DNA of 64,000 nt from Eledone cirrhosa. Taxonomy: Eukaryota. Below the pieces are notes generated by a model. That model did not search any database. It had not been told where the DNA came from and saw only the letters and a list, made by a program, of their open reading frames with translations. Numbering within the stretch: the stretch's first letter is position 1; each line of letters begins with the position of its first letter. Shown here in pieces: positions 2,512-63,291 of the stretch. Both the position numbers and the translations under genes were made by a program. The DNA is taken from assembly GCA_964016885.1 (NCBI GenBank), contig OZ024742.1, positions 132,494,001-132,558,000 of the forward strand. Direction: 5' to 3'.

Positions 2512-2514
<3 letters not shown>

Positions 2515-3380
2515 GGAAAAAATGAAACGAAATTTCATTTCCCACTCTTAGTACGGCTGTTACTTAAATATAAGTATGTACACATACATACATATATGAA
2601 TACAGACGTACAGTAGTATGTATATATATATACATAAATGCACACTTATATGTATGTACGTATGGATAAACCGAACATTTATTATAATGCACGGTGTGTT
2701 TGTAAACAAACATCCCGTATTAAGCCGTAGTGTCTAGCAACCATCGTTGCTCGTTTGTTCAACACTGACAAAGGAACGCTGTACTAGTTTGAAGCTTATT
2801 AGCTATCGTCAGCAACGTATACTTTCCGGCCAGATTGTTGAACGTATAATAAATGTTCGGTGAATCCATACGTACATATATATATATATATATGTGTGCA
2901 TGTATGTATATATATATATACATACTACTGTACGCCTCTATACATATATGTATGTACGTGTACATACTTATATTTAAGTAACAGCCGTGCTCAGTGTGGG
3001 AAATGAAATTTCGTTTCATTTTTTCAGTTTATCGTTTTCGGTGCACGCGGCCGATTAACCCACTCGATATGCAAATTTGGCTACTCAGCCAAGGTAAGTA
3101 TATACGTTCAAAAATCTGCCAGGAAGGTATACGTTGCTGACGATAGCTAATAAGCTTGAAACTAGTACAGCATTCCTTTGTCAGTGTTGAACAAACGAGC
3201 AACGATGGATGCTAGACACTATGGCTTAATACGGGATGTTTGTTTACAAACACACCGAGCATTATAATAAATGTTCGGTGAATCCATACGTACATATATA
3301 TATGTGTGCATGTATGTATATATATATGCATACTACTGTACGTCTGTATACATATATGTATGTACGTGTACATACTAATA
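2512..3380 (+). mobile_element. Retrozyme-like element, ~418-nt monomer with 5' inversion
   Basis: tataataaatgttcggtgaatcc repeats at 2845 and 3263; 2512-2846 is an inverted copy; another fragment at 40703-41040. Confidence 0.8.
3133..3171 (+). ncRNA. Type I hammerhead ribozyme
   Basis: gttg-CTGACGA-tagc taataa gctt-GAAA-ctag-TA-cagc; palindromic stem III ACTAGT. Confidence 0.85.
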
Positions 3381-3402
3381 TATATATATATATATATATA
3401 TT

Positions 3403-3605
3403 TAGGAACAAGTATGACCCCGACGGCAGAGCTCGAGCTGTTTCGACGGATAATTCTGGACTTTAAAAAATGAATCTAATGAACTTAGTCCAGATGAACC
3501 TAGTCTAAAAAATTAGTCCAGAATTAGCAGTCGAAACGGCTTGAGCTCTGACGTCGGGGTAATACTTGTTCCTATTACCCAATCTACTATCCTAAGTGTT
3601 GAGTA
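3403..3605. mobile_element. Fold-back mini-element (family also at 41998-42068, 56297-56432, 63092-63295)
   Basis: Inverted arms 3403-3462 and 3515-3574 plus a tail; GAAACGG HHR-like 3' half, 5' core uncertain; (TA)n flanks. Confidence 0.7.
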
Positions 3606-3820: not shown

Positions 3821-4050
3821 AGTTGAGATGGAGGGTCTATGTTTTTTCTCACATCTAGTTGTTCTTTGAATGTTACCTGTTTTATATGGAAAAAAGTGGC
3901 TCGAAATGCCAGGTTTTTAAAGAAGTAACTTGATTGGTTGGTCAAGAAGTATAATACATTTCGCGCCATTTCGCGTTAAAAAGTTCTTGAAACAAGGGGG
4001 GGGGCTCAGGTTGTTTATTCATATATGAGTGTTTCAATATTTTTTACTTT

Positions 4051-4500
4051 AAAAAAGGGGGCTCACGAAAGCTTGTTTTTAAAATGTAATTTGATTGGTT
4101 ATAAACGAAATTATGGCTGTCACGTGAACATGTTCATTAAAATTCGCACCCGTATTTGGGAATTTATTTTGTAGACTTTTAGAGAATTTTATGACAATAA
4201 AAAAGTGGCTCACGAAGGGTTTTTTTCTTAAATGTAATTTGATTGGTTATAAATGGAATTATGGCTGTCACGTGAACAAGTTCATTAAATTCCGCGCCCG
4301 TATTTGGGAATATATTTTGTAGCCTTTTAGAGAATTGTATGACAATAAAAAAAGTGGCTCACGAAGGCCTTTTTTTCTTAAATGCAATTTGATTGGTTAT
4401 AAATGAAATTATACTGTCACGTGAACAAGTTCATTGATTATCGCGCCCGTATTTGGGAATTTGTTTTGTAGCCTTTTAGAGAATGTTATGACAAGCAAAA
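4051..4500. repeat. Three ~149-bp tandem repeats in the PLE 3' UTR
   Basis: ggctcacgaa...tgattggttataaa...gtcacgtgaac...cccgtatttgggaa repeated three times. Confidence 0.9.
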
Positions 4501-5146
4501 AAATGGTCAAGAGAAATGGGATGGGAGAATTGTTATGGTTCAGTGAATATGGCTAGTTCGCTGGGGTGTCAGAGTTCAGATTTTCTATTGAAATAAAGAA
4601 AGTAGACATATGTATGTTTGTGTGTGTGTGTGTATAAAGATAATTCTATTGGTAGAAATAGGGGAGGGAGTTGAGTTTGTGTGTATATGGGTGTTATGTG
4701 TGTGTGGGGGGGAGTACGTTAAGATGGAGAGAATATATATATTGTGTGTGTGGGGGGGGGTGATTATATTAGTAACAATGGGGGAGGGAGTTGTGTGTGT
4801 GGGGGGAGGGTGTTATGTTTGCATGGGTGTTATGTGTGTGGGTGTATGGTTAGCATGTTAAGATGAAGAGAATATATATGTTGTGTGTGTTTGTGTGTGT
4901 GTGTGCGCGCGCGCATGTGTGTGTGCGTGTGTATGCGTGTGTGGGGGAATGATTCTGTTAGTAGGAATATTTTTGAAATAACATATTTTCCTTACTTATT
5001 CGTATTTGGTCTGTTGTATTGTCAGCGCAAACGTATGTTAAGGTTTATTTAGTTCGGGTTTTTATTTTCTAAAGTAGAAGGTGTTATGTTTGTGTGTATG
5101 TGTCTCTTTGGATGGTTAGCATGTTATGGTGTTGACATAATTTATA

Positions 5147-14061: not shown

Positions 14062-14088
<27 letters not shown>

Positions 14089-14092
<4 letters not shown>

Positions 14093-14760
14093 AATTAAGT
14101 TAAAAATGTACATCTACATATGCATACTGAAATACTAGTGTGTATATGGATACACACACGTATACATATGTAGGTGTAACAAGTCTTTCACTGGTTGCTT
14201 TACTGTGAGCAACCCAGCTATTCTGTATGTAAACACACAGACAAACCGGTTTTTAGAGTCATACTGGTTTTCGGGGGAACACCTTCCCTCTATTCTCCAG
14301 AAAGCCAGACAAGGAATATTGAACTAGTTTCGTTGTTGTTACAACTCATCAGCAATATTTACCTATCTACCGGCCCTTCTGGAGAATTGTAAAAGCACAT
14401 ATCGTTATATGCTTTTTCTATGAAAATTAGTAGTGGGCAGACTAATTTGCATAGAGTGTGAGTACGCACCGGTTCAGCGGAGACGATAAAAACAAATAAC
14501 GAAACGAAATTAAATTTCGTTTCGTTTGTAACTCACTTTTGTATGACTGACGCTTAACCGCTTAATAGCTGGGTTGCTCACAGTAAAGCAACCAGTGAAA
14601 GACTTGTTACACCTACATATGTATACGTGTGTGTATTCATATACACACTAGTATTTCAGTATGCATATGTAGATGTACATTTTTAACTTAATTGTTTAAG
14701 CGTCAGTCATACAAAAGTGAGTTACAAACGAAACGAAATTTAATTTCGTTTCGTTATTTG

Positions 14761-14767
<7 letters not shown>
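14089..14767 (-). mobile_element. Retrozyme-like element, ~468-nt monomer plus junction-spanning inversion
   Basis: A(14089-14222)-core-B(14486-14557), then revcomp(A) and revcomp(B) at 14564-14767. Confidence 0.85.
14315..14359 (-). ncRNA. Type I hammerhead ribozyme
   Basis: minus: aatattg-CTGATGA-gttg taacaa caac-GAAA-ctag-TT-caatatt; all stems perfect. Confidence 0.92.
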
Positions 14768-15310: not shown

Positions 15311-15465
15311 GTTTGAATATGTATAATAAAGCCAAAACAATGCAGGTATGGACATAGAAAAAGAATGCAATTGCAAAAGATATTGTTGACAATTCGTCTT
15401 TTACCTTAGATTTATTTTAAATGTCCTTCATTTTCGAGATAATATCTCTTCTTCAGAGGGAAATA

Positions 15466-17542
15466 AACACCAACAGAGGCGAACAATACGGTACCAACAC
15501 CGAACCTAGCGGCGCCCCAACCAACAACACACCTGACGCAAAACACCTTGTCACAGACTTGACAGGATCCCTCTCCCGAGAGGAATTAGACCTCCTCAGC
15601 CTGGGTCCCAAGTTCATATTGAAACAGAGACTGGACGACAAATTATGGCTCGACATAGAAACGAATTTCTGTCGGGCTACCTACCAACTAAAATGGATAT
15701 CGACTCTCGACAACAACACCACGGAATCCACCAAACCCAGATTCCCGATATACCAACTAGATTGCCCACTCTGTCCACCGCCTGCCAACCGCGAGATTGA
15801 AGAAAAACTCTCGAGACTAAAACATTCCGTATTTAACATATTACGGAAACAGAAGAAGATAGCCCCAAACCTCTCCAGGACACAACAACTCGCCCTGAGG
15901 AACCTACGGAATAGGGAACTTATATACTTACAATCCGACAAAGGTAAAGAGTTTTGCGTCATCTCTCAAGCCACATACGATAACCTAGCCTTTGAACACC
16001 TAAGCGACAATGAATTATACACAGAGAACCCGGACATGACTGCAGCCCAGATCGAAAAACAGACCAACTCCATTTGGTTCGATATCTGCAGGAGAAGACA
16101 ACTCCCAAATAAAGTTAAGCTCAACTACACCACTAGAAATAGCAGACGGCCCACTTGCTACCACCTCATCAAGACCCACAAGAATAGTACTGAGACGCAA
16201 ATAAGACCCACCGTGTCTAGCATAGAAGGACCCCTATACAAAATTTCCTGGCTCCTCTCCCAGGTCCTCAAGCCTCTACTCTCCACCTTTCCCGGGCATG
16301 TCAGTAGCTCCGACGAAGACTACACCAACTCCAGCCAGAACAATTTAAACTAAATAAATACGCTTTTAGCCTCGGCGTTGTCTCCCTCTACACTACAGTC
16401 CCCGCTCATCCAGCTGTCGATTTATTGACGGACTGCGTGGTCGCAGAGGACATCCACTGCTACGGCGTCCACCCGACAGACATACACCAGCTTCTGTCCT
16501 TCACAGTAGACAACACGTATTTCACCTTCCACCACCACACATACATACAGACAACAGGATTACCCATGGGATCCAGCCTATCGGGCCTGCTGGCAATCAC
16601 CTACATGAACCAGCTAAAATGCCGAGCCCTCAACACCTGCCATTCCCATGCCTTCTTCACCCGATATGTAGATGACATACTCATCCTTACATCATCCCGT
16701 GAGGAGGCAGATAAAATATACACAACATTCTCCAGCATCGACGCCAGTATAAAGTTCGTTATGGAACACTCCGATGACCGCGGATCCCTATCCCTACTGG
16801 ACTTCCAACTCAGGGTAACAGAGGAAGGCAATATCCACACCTGCTTCTATAAAAAGCCACCAGCAGGGCCCTGTTCGCACCCTCCCACTCGGTGCCAAGT
16901 TCGGATACATAAGGAACGAATTGGCACGTATCCGGAACAAATGCACCGACGCTAGAGACCGAGACACACACACCACACATTTCCTGGAAGTACTCAAACT
17001 GAACGGATACACGACATCCACCACAAACCGTACCAGAAATAACAGAGGACACCACACCCGAGGCACTAACACTTGCTTCCTGAAGCTCCCACACTTCAGT
17101 GACGAAACAACAGCCATCCGCAGAGCTATCAGACGAGAGGGACTAGATATCCAACTGGCCCACTCAGGTCCTTCTCTACGCGGACAGCTAACCAACAGCC
17201 ACTCCAGCAGACATGACAACTGCTGCAGGCTAGCCAACTGCCCATCAACGACACAGACCTGTGCCACCAGGCTTATGTCGTATACAGACTAGAGTGTGAC
17301 AAATGCAACAACTTCTACGTAGGTAGCACCACCAGACCACTCCACATAAGAATAAAAGAACACCTCAATACTAACGCTTTCTCATTTAAGAAACACCTAG
17401 TTAAATGCAAAACCACCGACAAAACCATAACAGTTAGGATAGAAACCTCGGCAATCTTAGAATTAAGAAAGCACTAATTATAGATAAAACACAACCACCA
17501 ATCAATAATAGACTAGAACTCAACACCCAATTTATAACATGA
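15466..17542 (+). pseudogene. PLE reverse transcriptase-GIY-YIG endonuclease (frameshifted)
   Basis: LLSLGPKF, SDKG, IRPTVS, GLPMGSSLS, RYVDDI, LNGY, VYRLECDKCNNFYVGSTTRPLHIRIKEH. Confidence 0.93.
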
Positions 17543-26019: not shown

Positions 26020-26532
26020 TTCGTTTCTGAATTTGTTTAGCAAGATTCTTTATCTGAAATCGTGTGTTGAAACCGATATTGTTATACTTTGGGAGGGTCA
26101 TGGGGTCATGTTGCCAATAAGAAATACACGCACCAGTTGCTTTCACTTCAATTTATTATAATAAATTTATAATAAATTTATAAATTTATAAATTTCTGGT
26201 TGGTTGGTTGGTTCCACAACCAGATAGGTGTTTATATATTGTCATAGTGCTTTCGTCACACACTCTGTGACCTCTTCAGTGACTGGGGATTCCTTTCTTT
26301 GTTTTTGTGCCTCTCCTTTGTTCTGTCCTACGCCATTTTTTTTCACTGAAGAGGTCACAGAGTGTGTGACGAAAGAACTATGACAATATATAAACAACTA
26401 TCTGGTTGTGGAACCAACCAACCAACCAGAAATTTATAAATTTATAAATTTATTATAAATTTATTATAATAAATTGAAGTGAAAGCAACTGGTGCGTGTC
26501 TTTCTTATTGGCAACATGACCCTCCCAAAGTA

Positions 26533-26535
<3 letters not shown>
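26020..26535. mobile_element. Fold-back pLTR, high-copy family K, two HHRs
   Basis: HHR at 26241-26283(-) and 26343-26384(+): CTGAAGA-g-gtcaca gagtg tgtgac-GAAAgaacT-tgac. Confidence 0.9.
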
Positions 26536-26589
<54 letters not shown>

Positions 26590-26591
<2 letters not shown>

Positions 26592-27345
26592 TTTCTGAAT
26601 TTGTTTAGAAAGATTCTTTATCTGAAAACGTGTTTTGAAGCCGATATTCTTATACTTTGGAAGGGTCATGTTGCCAATAAGGAAAACACGCACCAGACGT
26701 TTCACTTCAATTTATTATAATAAATTTATAAATTTAGAAATTTATAAATTTCCGGTTGGTTGGTTAGTTCCACAACCAGATGGTTGTTTATATATTGTCA
26801 AAGTTCTTTCGTCACGCATTTTGTGACCTCTTCAGTGACTGGGGGTTCTTTTCTTTGTTTTTTGTGCCTCTCCTTTGTTCTGTCCTACGCCATCTTGTTT
26901 CTGTGTGTGTGTTGTGTGCTTAGTTTGCGCATGTTTTACATCCGGGTGTCTGTGTGTGTTTATATTCGTTTATTTATTTGTTTATTTACATGTTACTGGT
27001 TGGTTGTTTGTTCTATGTGCGTGTGTGTTGTCATTTTGTCCTTAATTGTATGTATTGATGTTGCTGTTCCACTCATGTTTTCTATTAAATTTTGGTTGTA
27101 ATTCATTTATGTTTATTGCTTCTGTGATTTGTCTAAACATTGCGTCTTTTCTGTCTGTAGATTCTGTTTTTATTTCTATGTTCTCTAATTTAACATTATG
27201 TTCTATTTTAGCATGTTGGTAGAGTACAGATGATTCTTTACTATCTTGAAGGTCTCGCCAGAAGGAACGGATCGAACGGATAAACGAACACTGGCGAGAA
27301 AGCAACTGGTGCGTGTGTTTCTTATTGGCAACATGACCCTCCCTA
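26590..27345 (-). mobile_element. Family K PLE 3' end (GIY-YIG C-terminus plus pLTR) with short inverted end
   Basis: ORF 27042-27305 [11 protein letters not shown]...[23 protein letters not shown]; HHR at 26797-26839. Confidence 0.85.
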
Positions 27346-40694: not shown

Positions 40695-40811
40695 TCAACC
40701 ATATATATATATATATATATGGTTGCCGAACATTGTACGACTAATAATTCGGGCTGTTTGTTTACAAACAAAGCGAGCATTATAATAAAGGTTCGGTAAA
40801 CCCATACGTAC

Positions 40812-40916
<105 letters not shown>

Positions 40917-41054
40917 CATGTATATATATACACACTACTGTACATCTGTATACATATATGTATGTACGTATACATAATAATAGATAAGAATGTGCCGTAC
41001 TAAGAATGATAAATGAAATTTCTATCTTTCCATTCATATATATAGATATACATA

Positions 41055-51304: not shown

Positions 51305-51790
51305 AGATAAACAGAACAAGCAAGATTCAAACAATTTTTAAAGTTAAATTAAAAAATATAATTTAAATATTTACTTATTCCAATTGCTTTTACCGATCGG
51401 TTTCACTTCACAAAAGATTGGAGATCCATAGAGACCTCCAATGGAAAAGTTTAGATCATCAGAAAGCATATTCCTTTCCTAGGACTAAAAGTCCCAGGAA
51501 CGGCAAAATATATTGCCATCTGCCAGCTAGCACAGGATCGAATGGGGCCGAAAATTTGAAATATGCATGAACCAATCTTTTGTGAAGTGAAACCGATCGC
51601 AATTGGAATAAGTAAATATTTAAATTATATGTTTTAATTTATTTTAAAAAATTGTTTGAATCTTACTTGTTCTGCTTATCTCAATATTATAGTTCTGGTA
51701 TGTCAAATTAAAACCATAGAACAACCCTTGTATCATAGACACCCTATATATTTCCAGTGGTACTTAGTACCTGTGGTCATATTAACTTCC
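51300..51790. mobile_element. Family H inverted pLTR plus leader upstream of a PLE ORF
   Basis: HHR 51385-51468(-) tgcttt-CTGATGA...GAA-ACCGATCGGT-A-aaagca; arms ~51300-51420 and ~51572-51686. Confidence 0.8.
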
Positions 51791-53430
51791 ACGGCCACCC
51801 TACTTCACACTGAAGGACCACAAATCCGATTTCGACTGTAAACCATCTATCAGGCTTATAAACCCAACGAAGTCCGACATAGGGAGAATCAGCAAAACAA
51901 TCCTAGACCGCGTGATACCTAAAGTCAAGCAACACGCTCGTCTTAGCCTATGGATCAATACCCAGGAAGTTATCTCATGGTTCAGCAATTTGGAGGATAA
52001 ACGAGACACTAAATTTATCCAGTTCAACATAGAGAGCTACTATGCTTCAATCACCTTACCGCTACTTACTGCCGCCTTGGACTCCGCCGAAGCACTTGTG
52101 CCCATCACCGACCAGGAAAGAAAAATCATCCTCCACACCAGGAAGACAGTCTTACTCTTTGACAACTCCAAATGGATAAAAAGAGCTCCTGACTCACCCT
52201 TCGACGTCGGCATGGGCGCTACGGATTCGGCGGAGGTCACAGATCTTATAGGATTATTCCTTATAGCCAAACTCACCGATATGTTTCCTGCTTTCGGTGG
52301 TGGATTGTACCGTGATGATGAATCCTTACCCTTACAGGGTACAACTCCAGTAGTACAGATCGGGTCGGTAAAAAATTAATCAGCTTCTTCCGCGACTGGG
52401 GATTTAAAATAACACTACAAACGTCCCTGACCCGAGTTAATTTCCTGGATGTTACCCTCGATCTCAATAATGACCTGTACTACCCATACAGGAAACCCAA
52501 TGACAACCTGCACTACATCCACCGCCGATCTAACCATCCCAGGAACATCACCAACAACCTGGTCAAAAACATCTCCCTCCGTATATCCCGTTTGTCAGCT
52601 AATGAGAAGATATTCGATGAACATGCGCCTTACTACAACCAGGCCCTCAAGCGGAGTGGTTTCCGGGAGGAAATATCCTACTGTCCAGCTCCCATTAGCG
52701 GAACCAGCAGGCGACACCGCCGCTCACGCAATGTAACATGGTTCAATCCTCCCCACAACGCTGAGGTGACAACTCCCATCGGGAAAATTTTCTTTAGGCT
52801 CATTGAAAAACACTTCCCACCACAACATCGCTACCACAACATAGTTAACAAAAATACCATCAAACTCTCTTACAGCACTACACCCAACTTCGCACAAAAC
52901 ATCGTCTCCTCCAACAACAAAAAACTCAACCCCGATGGAAGAAACAACCTAAATAGCAGTGGAGAGCCGACCAGGAGGTGCAACTGTCCTGATAGATCCA
53001 GTTGCCCCCTCGACAACAGATGCAGAGACCGTAATGTGATCTACCAGTGCAACGTGAGCACGGACACCTCCAACAAAGCTTATATAGGATTAACCGCATG
53101 CGACTTCAAGACCCGGCTATACCAACACAGACATACCGTCCGAAACCCGGCACGGCGTCACGCCACTACACTTTCGGGCCACATATGGGACCTCAAGGAC
53201 AACAACATCAACTATGATCTCACTTGGAAATTACTGTCCAGAGCCAACTCTTACACGGGATGACGCCGTCCGTGCAATTTATGCTCGGAGGAAACATTAC
53301 AAATGCTGTTTTCGACGGACCAACTCCTAAACAAGAAAGATAAACTGGTTACTGCATGTAAACACCGATTACGTAGGACTTACCTCGCCCTCAAACCCCA
53401 TAATGACCCGGGGGGGGGGGGGGTAGACTA
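51786..53430 (+). pseudogene. PLE RT-CxC-GIY-YIG (probably Hydra clade), N-terminus missing
   Basis: TLKDHK..RLINPTKS, FIQFNI, MGATDSAEV, GLYRDD, NFLDVTLDL, WFNPP, CNCPDRSSCPL, IYQC..YIGLT..FKTR, CNLC. Confidence 0.93.
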
Positions 53431-56298: not shown

Positions 56299-56432
56299 CG
56301 AAGGAAATGTGGTAAGGAACCAGGTGGACCATAACGCACCAAAGTACTCAATACTTGAGGTAGTAGAGTGGGTAATAGGAACCAGTAAGACCCCGACAGC
56401 TGAGCTCAAGCCGTTTCGACGGCTAATTCTGG

Positions 56433-56723
<291 letters not shown>

Positions 56724-63092: not shown

Positions 63093-63291
63093 ACGAACGA
63101 AGTGTGGTAAGGAACCAGGTGGACCATAACGCACCAAAGTACTCAATACTTAGGGTAGTAGAGTGGGTAATAGGAACTAGTAGCACGCCGACGGCTGAGC
63201 TCAAGCCGTTTCGACGGGTAATTCTGGTCTAAATTAGTCCAGACTTAGCCGTCGAAACGGCTTGAGCTCAGCCGTCGGGGTCCTGCTCGTT

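Follow-up and report, generated by a model that had tools for sequence, protein, structure and literature searches.

Layout of the insertion and its hammerhead motifs

The window, a 64,000-nt stretch of Eledone cirrhosa DNA (contig OZ024742.1), contains at positions 2512-3384 an inverted arm followed by a forward arm, the pair lying between two (AT)n tracts. The left target flank is an (AT)n-rich microsatellite (2311-2511; period 2 according to TRF) and the right flank is (AT)n as read from the sequence (3378-3401). The inverted arm (2512-2848, minus strand) is a colinear piece of 340 nt, less than one unit, corresponding to unit positions 81-420. The forward arm (2845-3384, plus strand) comprises 1.3 units, running from unit position 243 to 420 and then from 1 to ~357. 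The 5′ ends of the two arms are joined through a 4-nt palindromic microhomology at 2845-2848, where they overlap by 4 nt.

The 418-nt spacing of the forward repeat in the original prediction, from 2845 to 3263, was confirmed: 2845-2976 and 3263-3384 are 88.6% identical over 132 nt, with a start-to-start distance of 418, and the unit of the family measures 420-430 nt. Positions 2565-2848 are the reverse complement of 3101-3384 (93.3% over 284 nt). The inverted arm had also been said to run on into sequence equivalent to 2977-3030, and indeed it extends to 2512 as the reverse complement of 2964-3029 (62/66 nt). With the microsatellite excluded, the arms matched at 154/163 nt, far above chance. 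Relative to other copies, the window copy lacks 12 nt after 3090, and its internal AT run is longer. The forward arm contains no stop-to-stop frame of at least 100 aa, no match to a protein of Penelope-like elements (PLEs) was found on the unit, and the repeat has no LTR organization. Its sequence identifies the locus as one insertion of a tandem repeat of ~420 nt that lacks an ORF and carries a type I hammerhead ribozyme (HHR), that is, a non-LTR retrozyme.

In the forward HHR (3131-3173, plus strand), the core (3137-3143 and 3158-3161) is intact and cleavage is predicted after 3167. Helix II has a U-U at its base, helix III is short and palindromic, and helix I has one mismatch, a G>A change at 3172 that falls at a CpG site and occurs in 9 of the 49 HHR copies listed. 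In the inverted HHR (2776-2818, minus strand), C replaces G12 at 2791, which is the reading of CAAA for GAAA reported earlier. Among the 49 HHR copies listed from 30 loci, one had this change, which is private to the window copy. G12 is described as the general base of the HHR (PMC6155905), and its loss likely inactivates the inverted ribozyme.

Searched at gathering and at E ≤ 10, Rfam gave no HHR match; all that it gave, below gathering, was miRNA matches driven by the microsatellite. The HHR is therefore called from its motif and from covariation. In a set of eight related sequences from three lineages, 6 of 13 pairs changed on both sides and 94% of cells were paired, as compared with 22-47% in slid controls. 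As this set consists of relatives from which the structure itself was named, these data support the fold rather than prove it. Minimum free energy folding missed the HHR fold in the window copies (z scores of 0.82 and −0.76; −1.95 for an unmutated copy) and was therefore not taken as support. HHRs of the family have a weak helix II base (U-U or C-A) and a helix III of 1-2 bp. Between families that are 62% identical, compensatory changes preserve the fold, which makes a role for cleavage at some stage likely.

A read-through transcript of the window copy would form a long hairpin. Since each arm carries only one HHR, the copy cannot release a monomer; two consecutive intact HHRs, absent here, are present at other sampled loci, such as L009, L026 and L161. 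A single HHR in each arm, the G12 mutation in one of the two and the expected fold-back make it likely that the window copy is a dead product rather than a source.

Other repeat families contribute further HHR-core-like motifs to the window, at 287, 1723, 26279-26835, 27802, 29255, 39915, 55072 and 63704, and a 148-nt tandem repeat of 3.1 copies lies at 4050-4506. At six sampled loci (L056, L072, L097, L210, L216 and L242), an HHR-like core has a U3-A8 pair in place of C3-G8.

The repeat family and its two fixed 3′ ends

Exact HHR cores numbered 5,949 in the 3.0-Gb genome, as against 0 in the control. They are mostly dispersed, with some in arrays, and tandem arms reach 10 units in one insertion. 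At non-CpG sites, the median difference of 194 copies from the majority sequence is 2.3%. Pattern matches numbered 1,050 for a subfamily at 86% identity, and a sister family with a unit of 466-469 nt, 62% identical, accounted for most of the 100 matches listed of 10,572. Both share the whole layout of the window family.

The window itself holds a back-to-back copy of the sister family (14088-14767) with an intact HHR core at 14352 (minus strand) and A and B ends, as defined below. It also holds, at 40719-41040, an older, more diverged relative of the retrozyme family (~75-78%) without the HHR part. Elsewhere, the ten-unit arm of L161 (G000:C1:49.584-49.588 Mb) alternates in an a-b-a-b pattern as a two-unit higher-order repeat, probably a local amplification after insertion, and a sister-family array with 938-nt spacing resembles it. 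A ~21-kb array of the unit with fixed private variants (L162-L164, G000:C1:51.772-51.794 Mb) is a dispersed copy turned satellite. One sister-family insertion (L171) sits in a (CAT)n microsatellite rather than in (AT)n.

When the unit was phased on real termini, two fixed 3′ ends emerged ~61 nt apart. Each is associated with a hairpin, end A lying at the foot of one rich in AT and end B just after another. In the window, the first of these is a predicted, self-complementary structure within the unit (2863-2968, plus strand), with end A at its 3′ foot; folding and alignment identified a homologue in the sister family. The forward arm terminates at end A (~3376-3381) and the inverted arm at end B (2512). 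The ~61 nt between the two ends thus form a 'tail' that is found at only one end of the insertion (2512-2572, minus strand); an internal read-through copy of this segment, with the second hairpin just before end B, occurs at 2969-3032 (plus strand). Across the family, (AT)n directly follows 121 of 148 A or B ends.

That the arms end at two different fixed sites is the main feature missed by the original prediction, whose monomer junction is misplaced. Positions 2845/3263 and 3384/2977 are not RNA ends: 2845 marks a random 5′ truncation, and ~3376-3384 corresponds to end A. The 'repeat end' crossed by the inverted arm is likely the point at which reverse transcription of the forward arm started, and the junction that is informative about the template is the HHR cut at 3167. 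The forward arm might have been a 3′-deleted copy; the recurrence of end A ruled this out.

To evaluate the pairing of ends, 21 duplicate loci and four stretches of one long array or its flank were dropped, leaving 57 back-to-back pairs and 64 single arms. The 57 pairs comprised 40 A+B, one B+B and no A+A combinations, 14 with one undefined end and two at a locus edge. Accordingly, 40 of the 41 insertions with two defined ends were A+B, the window copy among them (P ≈ 2e-11 for a null of 0.5); the position-ordered subset, taken by itself, gave 18/19. The sister family has homologous ends, and of the 17 pairs found in 26 of its loci, the 13 with both ends defined were all A+B. A further 46 loci, read by eye, yielded 12 direct A+B pairs. 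Of individual cases, L259 is A+B once a split arm is merged, the apparent A+A of L226 disappears when a gap is bridged, and at L260 the B end is altered. The lengths and 5′ positions of paired arms were uncorrelated (Rayleigh P = 0.89 for the 5′ ends), and the joint overlapped by at least 1 nt in 32 of the 57 pairs. By analogy with PLE insertions, the fixed-end pairing and the one-sided tail are read as the PLE inverted-arm footprint.

These data bear on whether the inverted arm is a local DNA fold-back, a rearrangement or an assembly artefact. The surroundings are rich in microsatellites and a few pairs of the family have symmetric fold-back joints (L161, L313 and L310). However, the inverted arm carries 61 nt past the end of the forward arm, the two arms differ at ~5-7% of sites, and the A+B architecture recurs at ~40 loci whose 5′ ends are unrelated. 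We consider such an origin very improbable.

RNA template and probable Penelope-like machinery

The original prediction had inferred a circular or multimeric template from an inverted arm continuing end to start. This reasoning failed, as the arm is shorter than one unit, has no wrap-around and starts at B, 61 nt beyond A, yet the conclusion stood on other evidence. Both window arms cross the HHR cut site. In the family, the distribution of starts and ends that had been proposed as a check proved to be split: the 3′ ends are fixed at two sites, while the 5′ ends are random and have no peak at the HHR cut. Only 3 of 176 5′ ends lay within 5 nt of the cut, as compared with 4.6 expected, and 0 of 147 arms stopped at the first cut. 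As many as 123 of the 147 arms were longer than a cut linear monomer permits, a fraction inflated by the choice of loci by similarity or motif, which favours long arms. Four arms stopped within 8 nt of the second cut, where a rough estimate gives ~1.5, a weak hint that some templates, a minor share, were cut and linear. The absence of a 5′-end pile-up at the HHR cut suggests that the template was likely a circle or an uncut multimer.

Overall, we interpret the locus as a single back-to-back insertion of an ORF-less ~420-nt HHR repeat, in which a circular or uncut multimeric RNA would have been copied by a borrowed PLE RT-endonuclease, with both (AT)n strands primed at two fixed internal starts 61 nt apart. 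We put the probability of this reading at about 0.88. Same-sense arrays likely give the source RNAs, which the HHR would cut into monomers, probably acting as a dimer through the palindromic helix III, and the cut monomers could be ligated into circles. The PLE enzyme would then nick both strands of the (AT)n target. One strand would prime at site B, giving the tailed arm, and the other at site A, giving the tail-less arm. Each cDNA would run a random distance, past the HHR cut site and the unit boundary, before the two were joined 5′ to 5′.

Within this reading, two forms of the template were weighed. Rolling-circle reverse transcription of a ligated monomeric circle falls a little short of an even chance in our estimate. 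It is favoured by the lack of arm stops at the HHR cut site, by the absence of a common upstream flank carried along with the copies and by the demonstration of circles for coral, mussel and axolotl retrozymes (PMC7229834). The pattern of variants points the same way, with a sharing of 0.32 between units and 0.28 between arms of one insertion, as compared with 0.065 between insertions. Moreover, one long array (46 HHR anchors) was ruled out as a master locus: its fixed variants, present in 41/41 cases, were found in 1 of 207 dispersed copies. Against a monomeric circle, haplotypes are mixed within an arm (L145, at seven sites, and L127) or between arms (L086 and L149) at some insertions. Scored at ten diagnostic sites, mixing affected opposite arms in 29 of 72 informative cases and tandem units in 32 of 84, below the 83-95% expected from random pairing. 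Several insertions mix haplotypes at many sites, and for such events this points to two templates or to a multimer that was itself heterogeneous. Private variants, too, were rarely common to the units of an arm (18 shared and 297 not), a result that is expected if most of them arose after insertion. In published work, the anole PLE uses uncut RNA in vitro and its HHR is dispensable (PMC11167929), and 8 of 9 Xenopus dimers did not cleave (bioRxiv 10.64898/2026.07.22.740005).

The other form, which we rank second and would also not bet on, consists of linear multimers, transcribed from same-sense arrays and left uncut, on which reverse transcription would initiate internally and now and then switch templates; the HHR would then be slow or idle in mobilization. 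The weak helix II base and the helix III of only 1-2 bp are in keeping with this, as are the insertions of mixed haplotype and the occurrence of an autonomous PLE of this genome in tandem 3,531-nt units. The conservation of the HHR fold through compensatory changes argues against it, and the one long array tested did not provide a source matching the dispersed majority. A fuller version of the borrowed-enzyme reading, in which integration is asymmetric, the strands are obliged to prime at A and B, respectively, run lengths are independent, the RNAs sometimes differ and the template is the ligated retrozyme circle, is tentative and, in our judgement, would sooner fail than hold in all its parts.

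With the PLE ORF of the window as the query, PLEs were found to be abundant in the genome (56,355 candidates). They include intact 717-aa RT-EN ORFs in 3,531-nt tandems, for example at L061; we take them to be Neptune-like on sequence motifs and not on a tree. Just outside the retrozyme lies a terminal fragment of a Neptune-like PLE (3403-3605), arranged back to back, in which a single arm has a tail, of ~33 nt; this one-sided tail likewise lies in (AT)n. The fragment matches sequence just upstream of the 717-aa ORF in L061 and shares no sequence with the retrozyme. Fragments at 56345-56460 and 63140-63260 resemble these back-to-back PLE ends. The window further contains a frameshifted Neptune-like ORF (51786-53263; RT, Cys linker and GIY-YIG) and a broken PLE-like RT ORF (15421-17292; RVT_1 match), presumably Penelope/Poseidon-like from its motifs, with HHR-core-like words at 15456 (minus strand) and 17941 (plus strand).

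We also considered whether the copies are 5′-truncated ends (pseudo-LTRs) of a longer autonomous PLE, a membership that, together with fixed termini, the original prediction had set against its own proposal. Fixed termini were found in part, as the two 3′ ends; the 5′ ends vary and arrays reach 10 units. None of the loci sampled yielded a longer, linear PLE that shares this sequence. The unit has no DNA similarity to the one complete PLE unit examined or to the other PLE-bearing loci sampled, and no partner was identified by BLASTN of the unit against 33 loci or, in the sampled loci, by tblastn of three PLE protein pieces, by a profile search or by an HHR scan. Near sampled copies, no ORF with RT plus GIY-YIG was colinear with the repeat. 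Three direct junctions with PLE ORF DNA were rejected as partners, being old, mutually unrelated debris. In favour of a pseudo-LTR origin, every insertion mark is a PLE mark; 24 of 57 Xenopus retrozyme families are homologous to annotated transposable elements, with PLEs in 21 of 22 (bioRxiv 10.64898/2026.07.22.740005); and the PLE loci sampled, none of which shared a terminal sequence with the unit, cover part of the PLE families of the genome. On the other hand, the unit recurs head to tail, without an ORF and up to 10 times per insertion, and an all-versus-all comparison of 89 flanks found no common extension. In addition, PLE ORF matches near copies are separated from them by (AT)n or are old unrelated debris, and a relaxed HHR pattern returned almost only point variants of known families among the 100 listed of 196 matches. 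A pseudo-LTR origin is thus improbable and largely refuted for the bulk of the copies.

PLE mobilization of animal retrozymes has been proposed from co-occurrence and sequence kinship. The retrozyme class and the one-sided tail are already known; to these, the family adds mechanistic footprints, namely, two fixed internal start sites, one per arm in 40/41 and 13/13 pairs, and a ribozyme cut that is read through. It also offers a small, defined RNA with which to test the origin of PLE tails and inverted arms, and circles as template. If asymmetric integration holds, these insertions would be genome-scale in vivo evidence for a two-RT staggered-start mechanism, which the in vitro system left unsettled, and would name a 420-nt minimal cis-substrate for PLE mobilization.

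Comparison with known systems

Animal non-LTR retrozymes were described by Cervera and de la Pena 2020 (PMC7229834) and linked to PLEs by Li, Clavereau and Pollet 2026 (bioRxiv 10.64898/2026.07.22.740005). According to the main texts, their units are ~150-450 nt, up to ~970, and occur as dimers to multimers; Li et al. call a locus 'active' if it has two consecutive intact HHRs. The family described here resembles them in its non-coding tandem unit of a few hundred nt, with one type I HHR each and low GC, and in its thousands of dispersed copies and arrays in a genome that also holds PLEs. Its HHR joins traits of two axolotl motifs reported there, a weak helix III that is palindromic and a helix II with U-U at its base. 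RNA circles, reported for animal retrozymes, are for the present family a prediction from DNA. The two fixed 3′ ends and the paired back-to-back arms do not appear in those descriptions, and the open main texts consulted give no account of paired A and B ends in retrozymes or in this family.

Satellite 2 of newts and salamanders is likewise a tandem HHR repeat with a weak helix III, and is reported to cleave as a dimer (PMC6155905, PMC7229834); its sequence differs from that of the window family. An snRNA-type promoter is attributed to satellite 2, second-hand, in PMC2220036. In the unit, upstream motifs of the host U1/U2 genes were unmatched beyond AT-rich noise. An octamer-like word was rejected as a promoter: the host U1/U2 promoters lack it, and the sister subfamily unit inspected has an altered version. 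Sister families do not keep a splice-donor-like word at ~3093, which was dropped for that reason. In the host U1/U2 gene arrays (L269-L301), both gene types have two upstream words in common, one pyrimidine-rich near −255 and one short near −55, and the full octamer occurred in 0 of 13 upstream regions inspected.

Insertions of EN+ PLEs are described as having an inverted 5′-truncated copy, a tail at one end and a bias for (TA)n (Craig et al. 2021, PMC8557442). The present family shares with them 5′ truncation, partial tandems, the inverted 5′-truncated copy, the one-end tail and the (TA)n bias; unlike them, it has no RT-EN ORF. Its tail measures 61 nt, and that of the sister family ~70, as compared with the 30-40 nt reported for PLEs. 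Helix I of its HHR is extended relative to the minimal form described for PLEs. In work on the anole Poseidon element PAc (Frangieh et al. 2024, PMC11167929), both target strands were extended, uncut RNA was used and reverse transcription started at two internal sites bounding the tail. Similarly, the family has two candidate RT start sites downstream of the HHR, beside stem-loops. By contrast, the start sites of PAc in vitro were reported to be alike on both strands, whereas the insertions described here pair A with B almost without exception.
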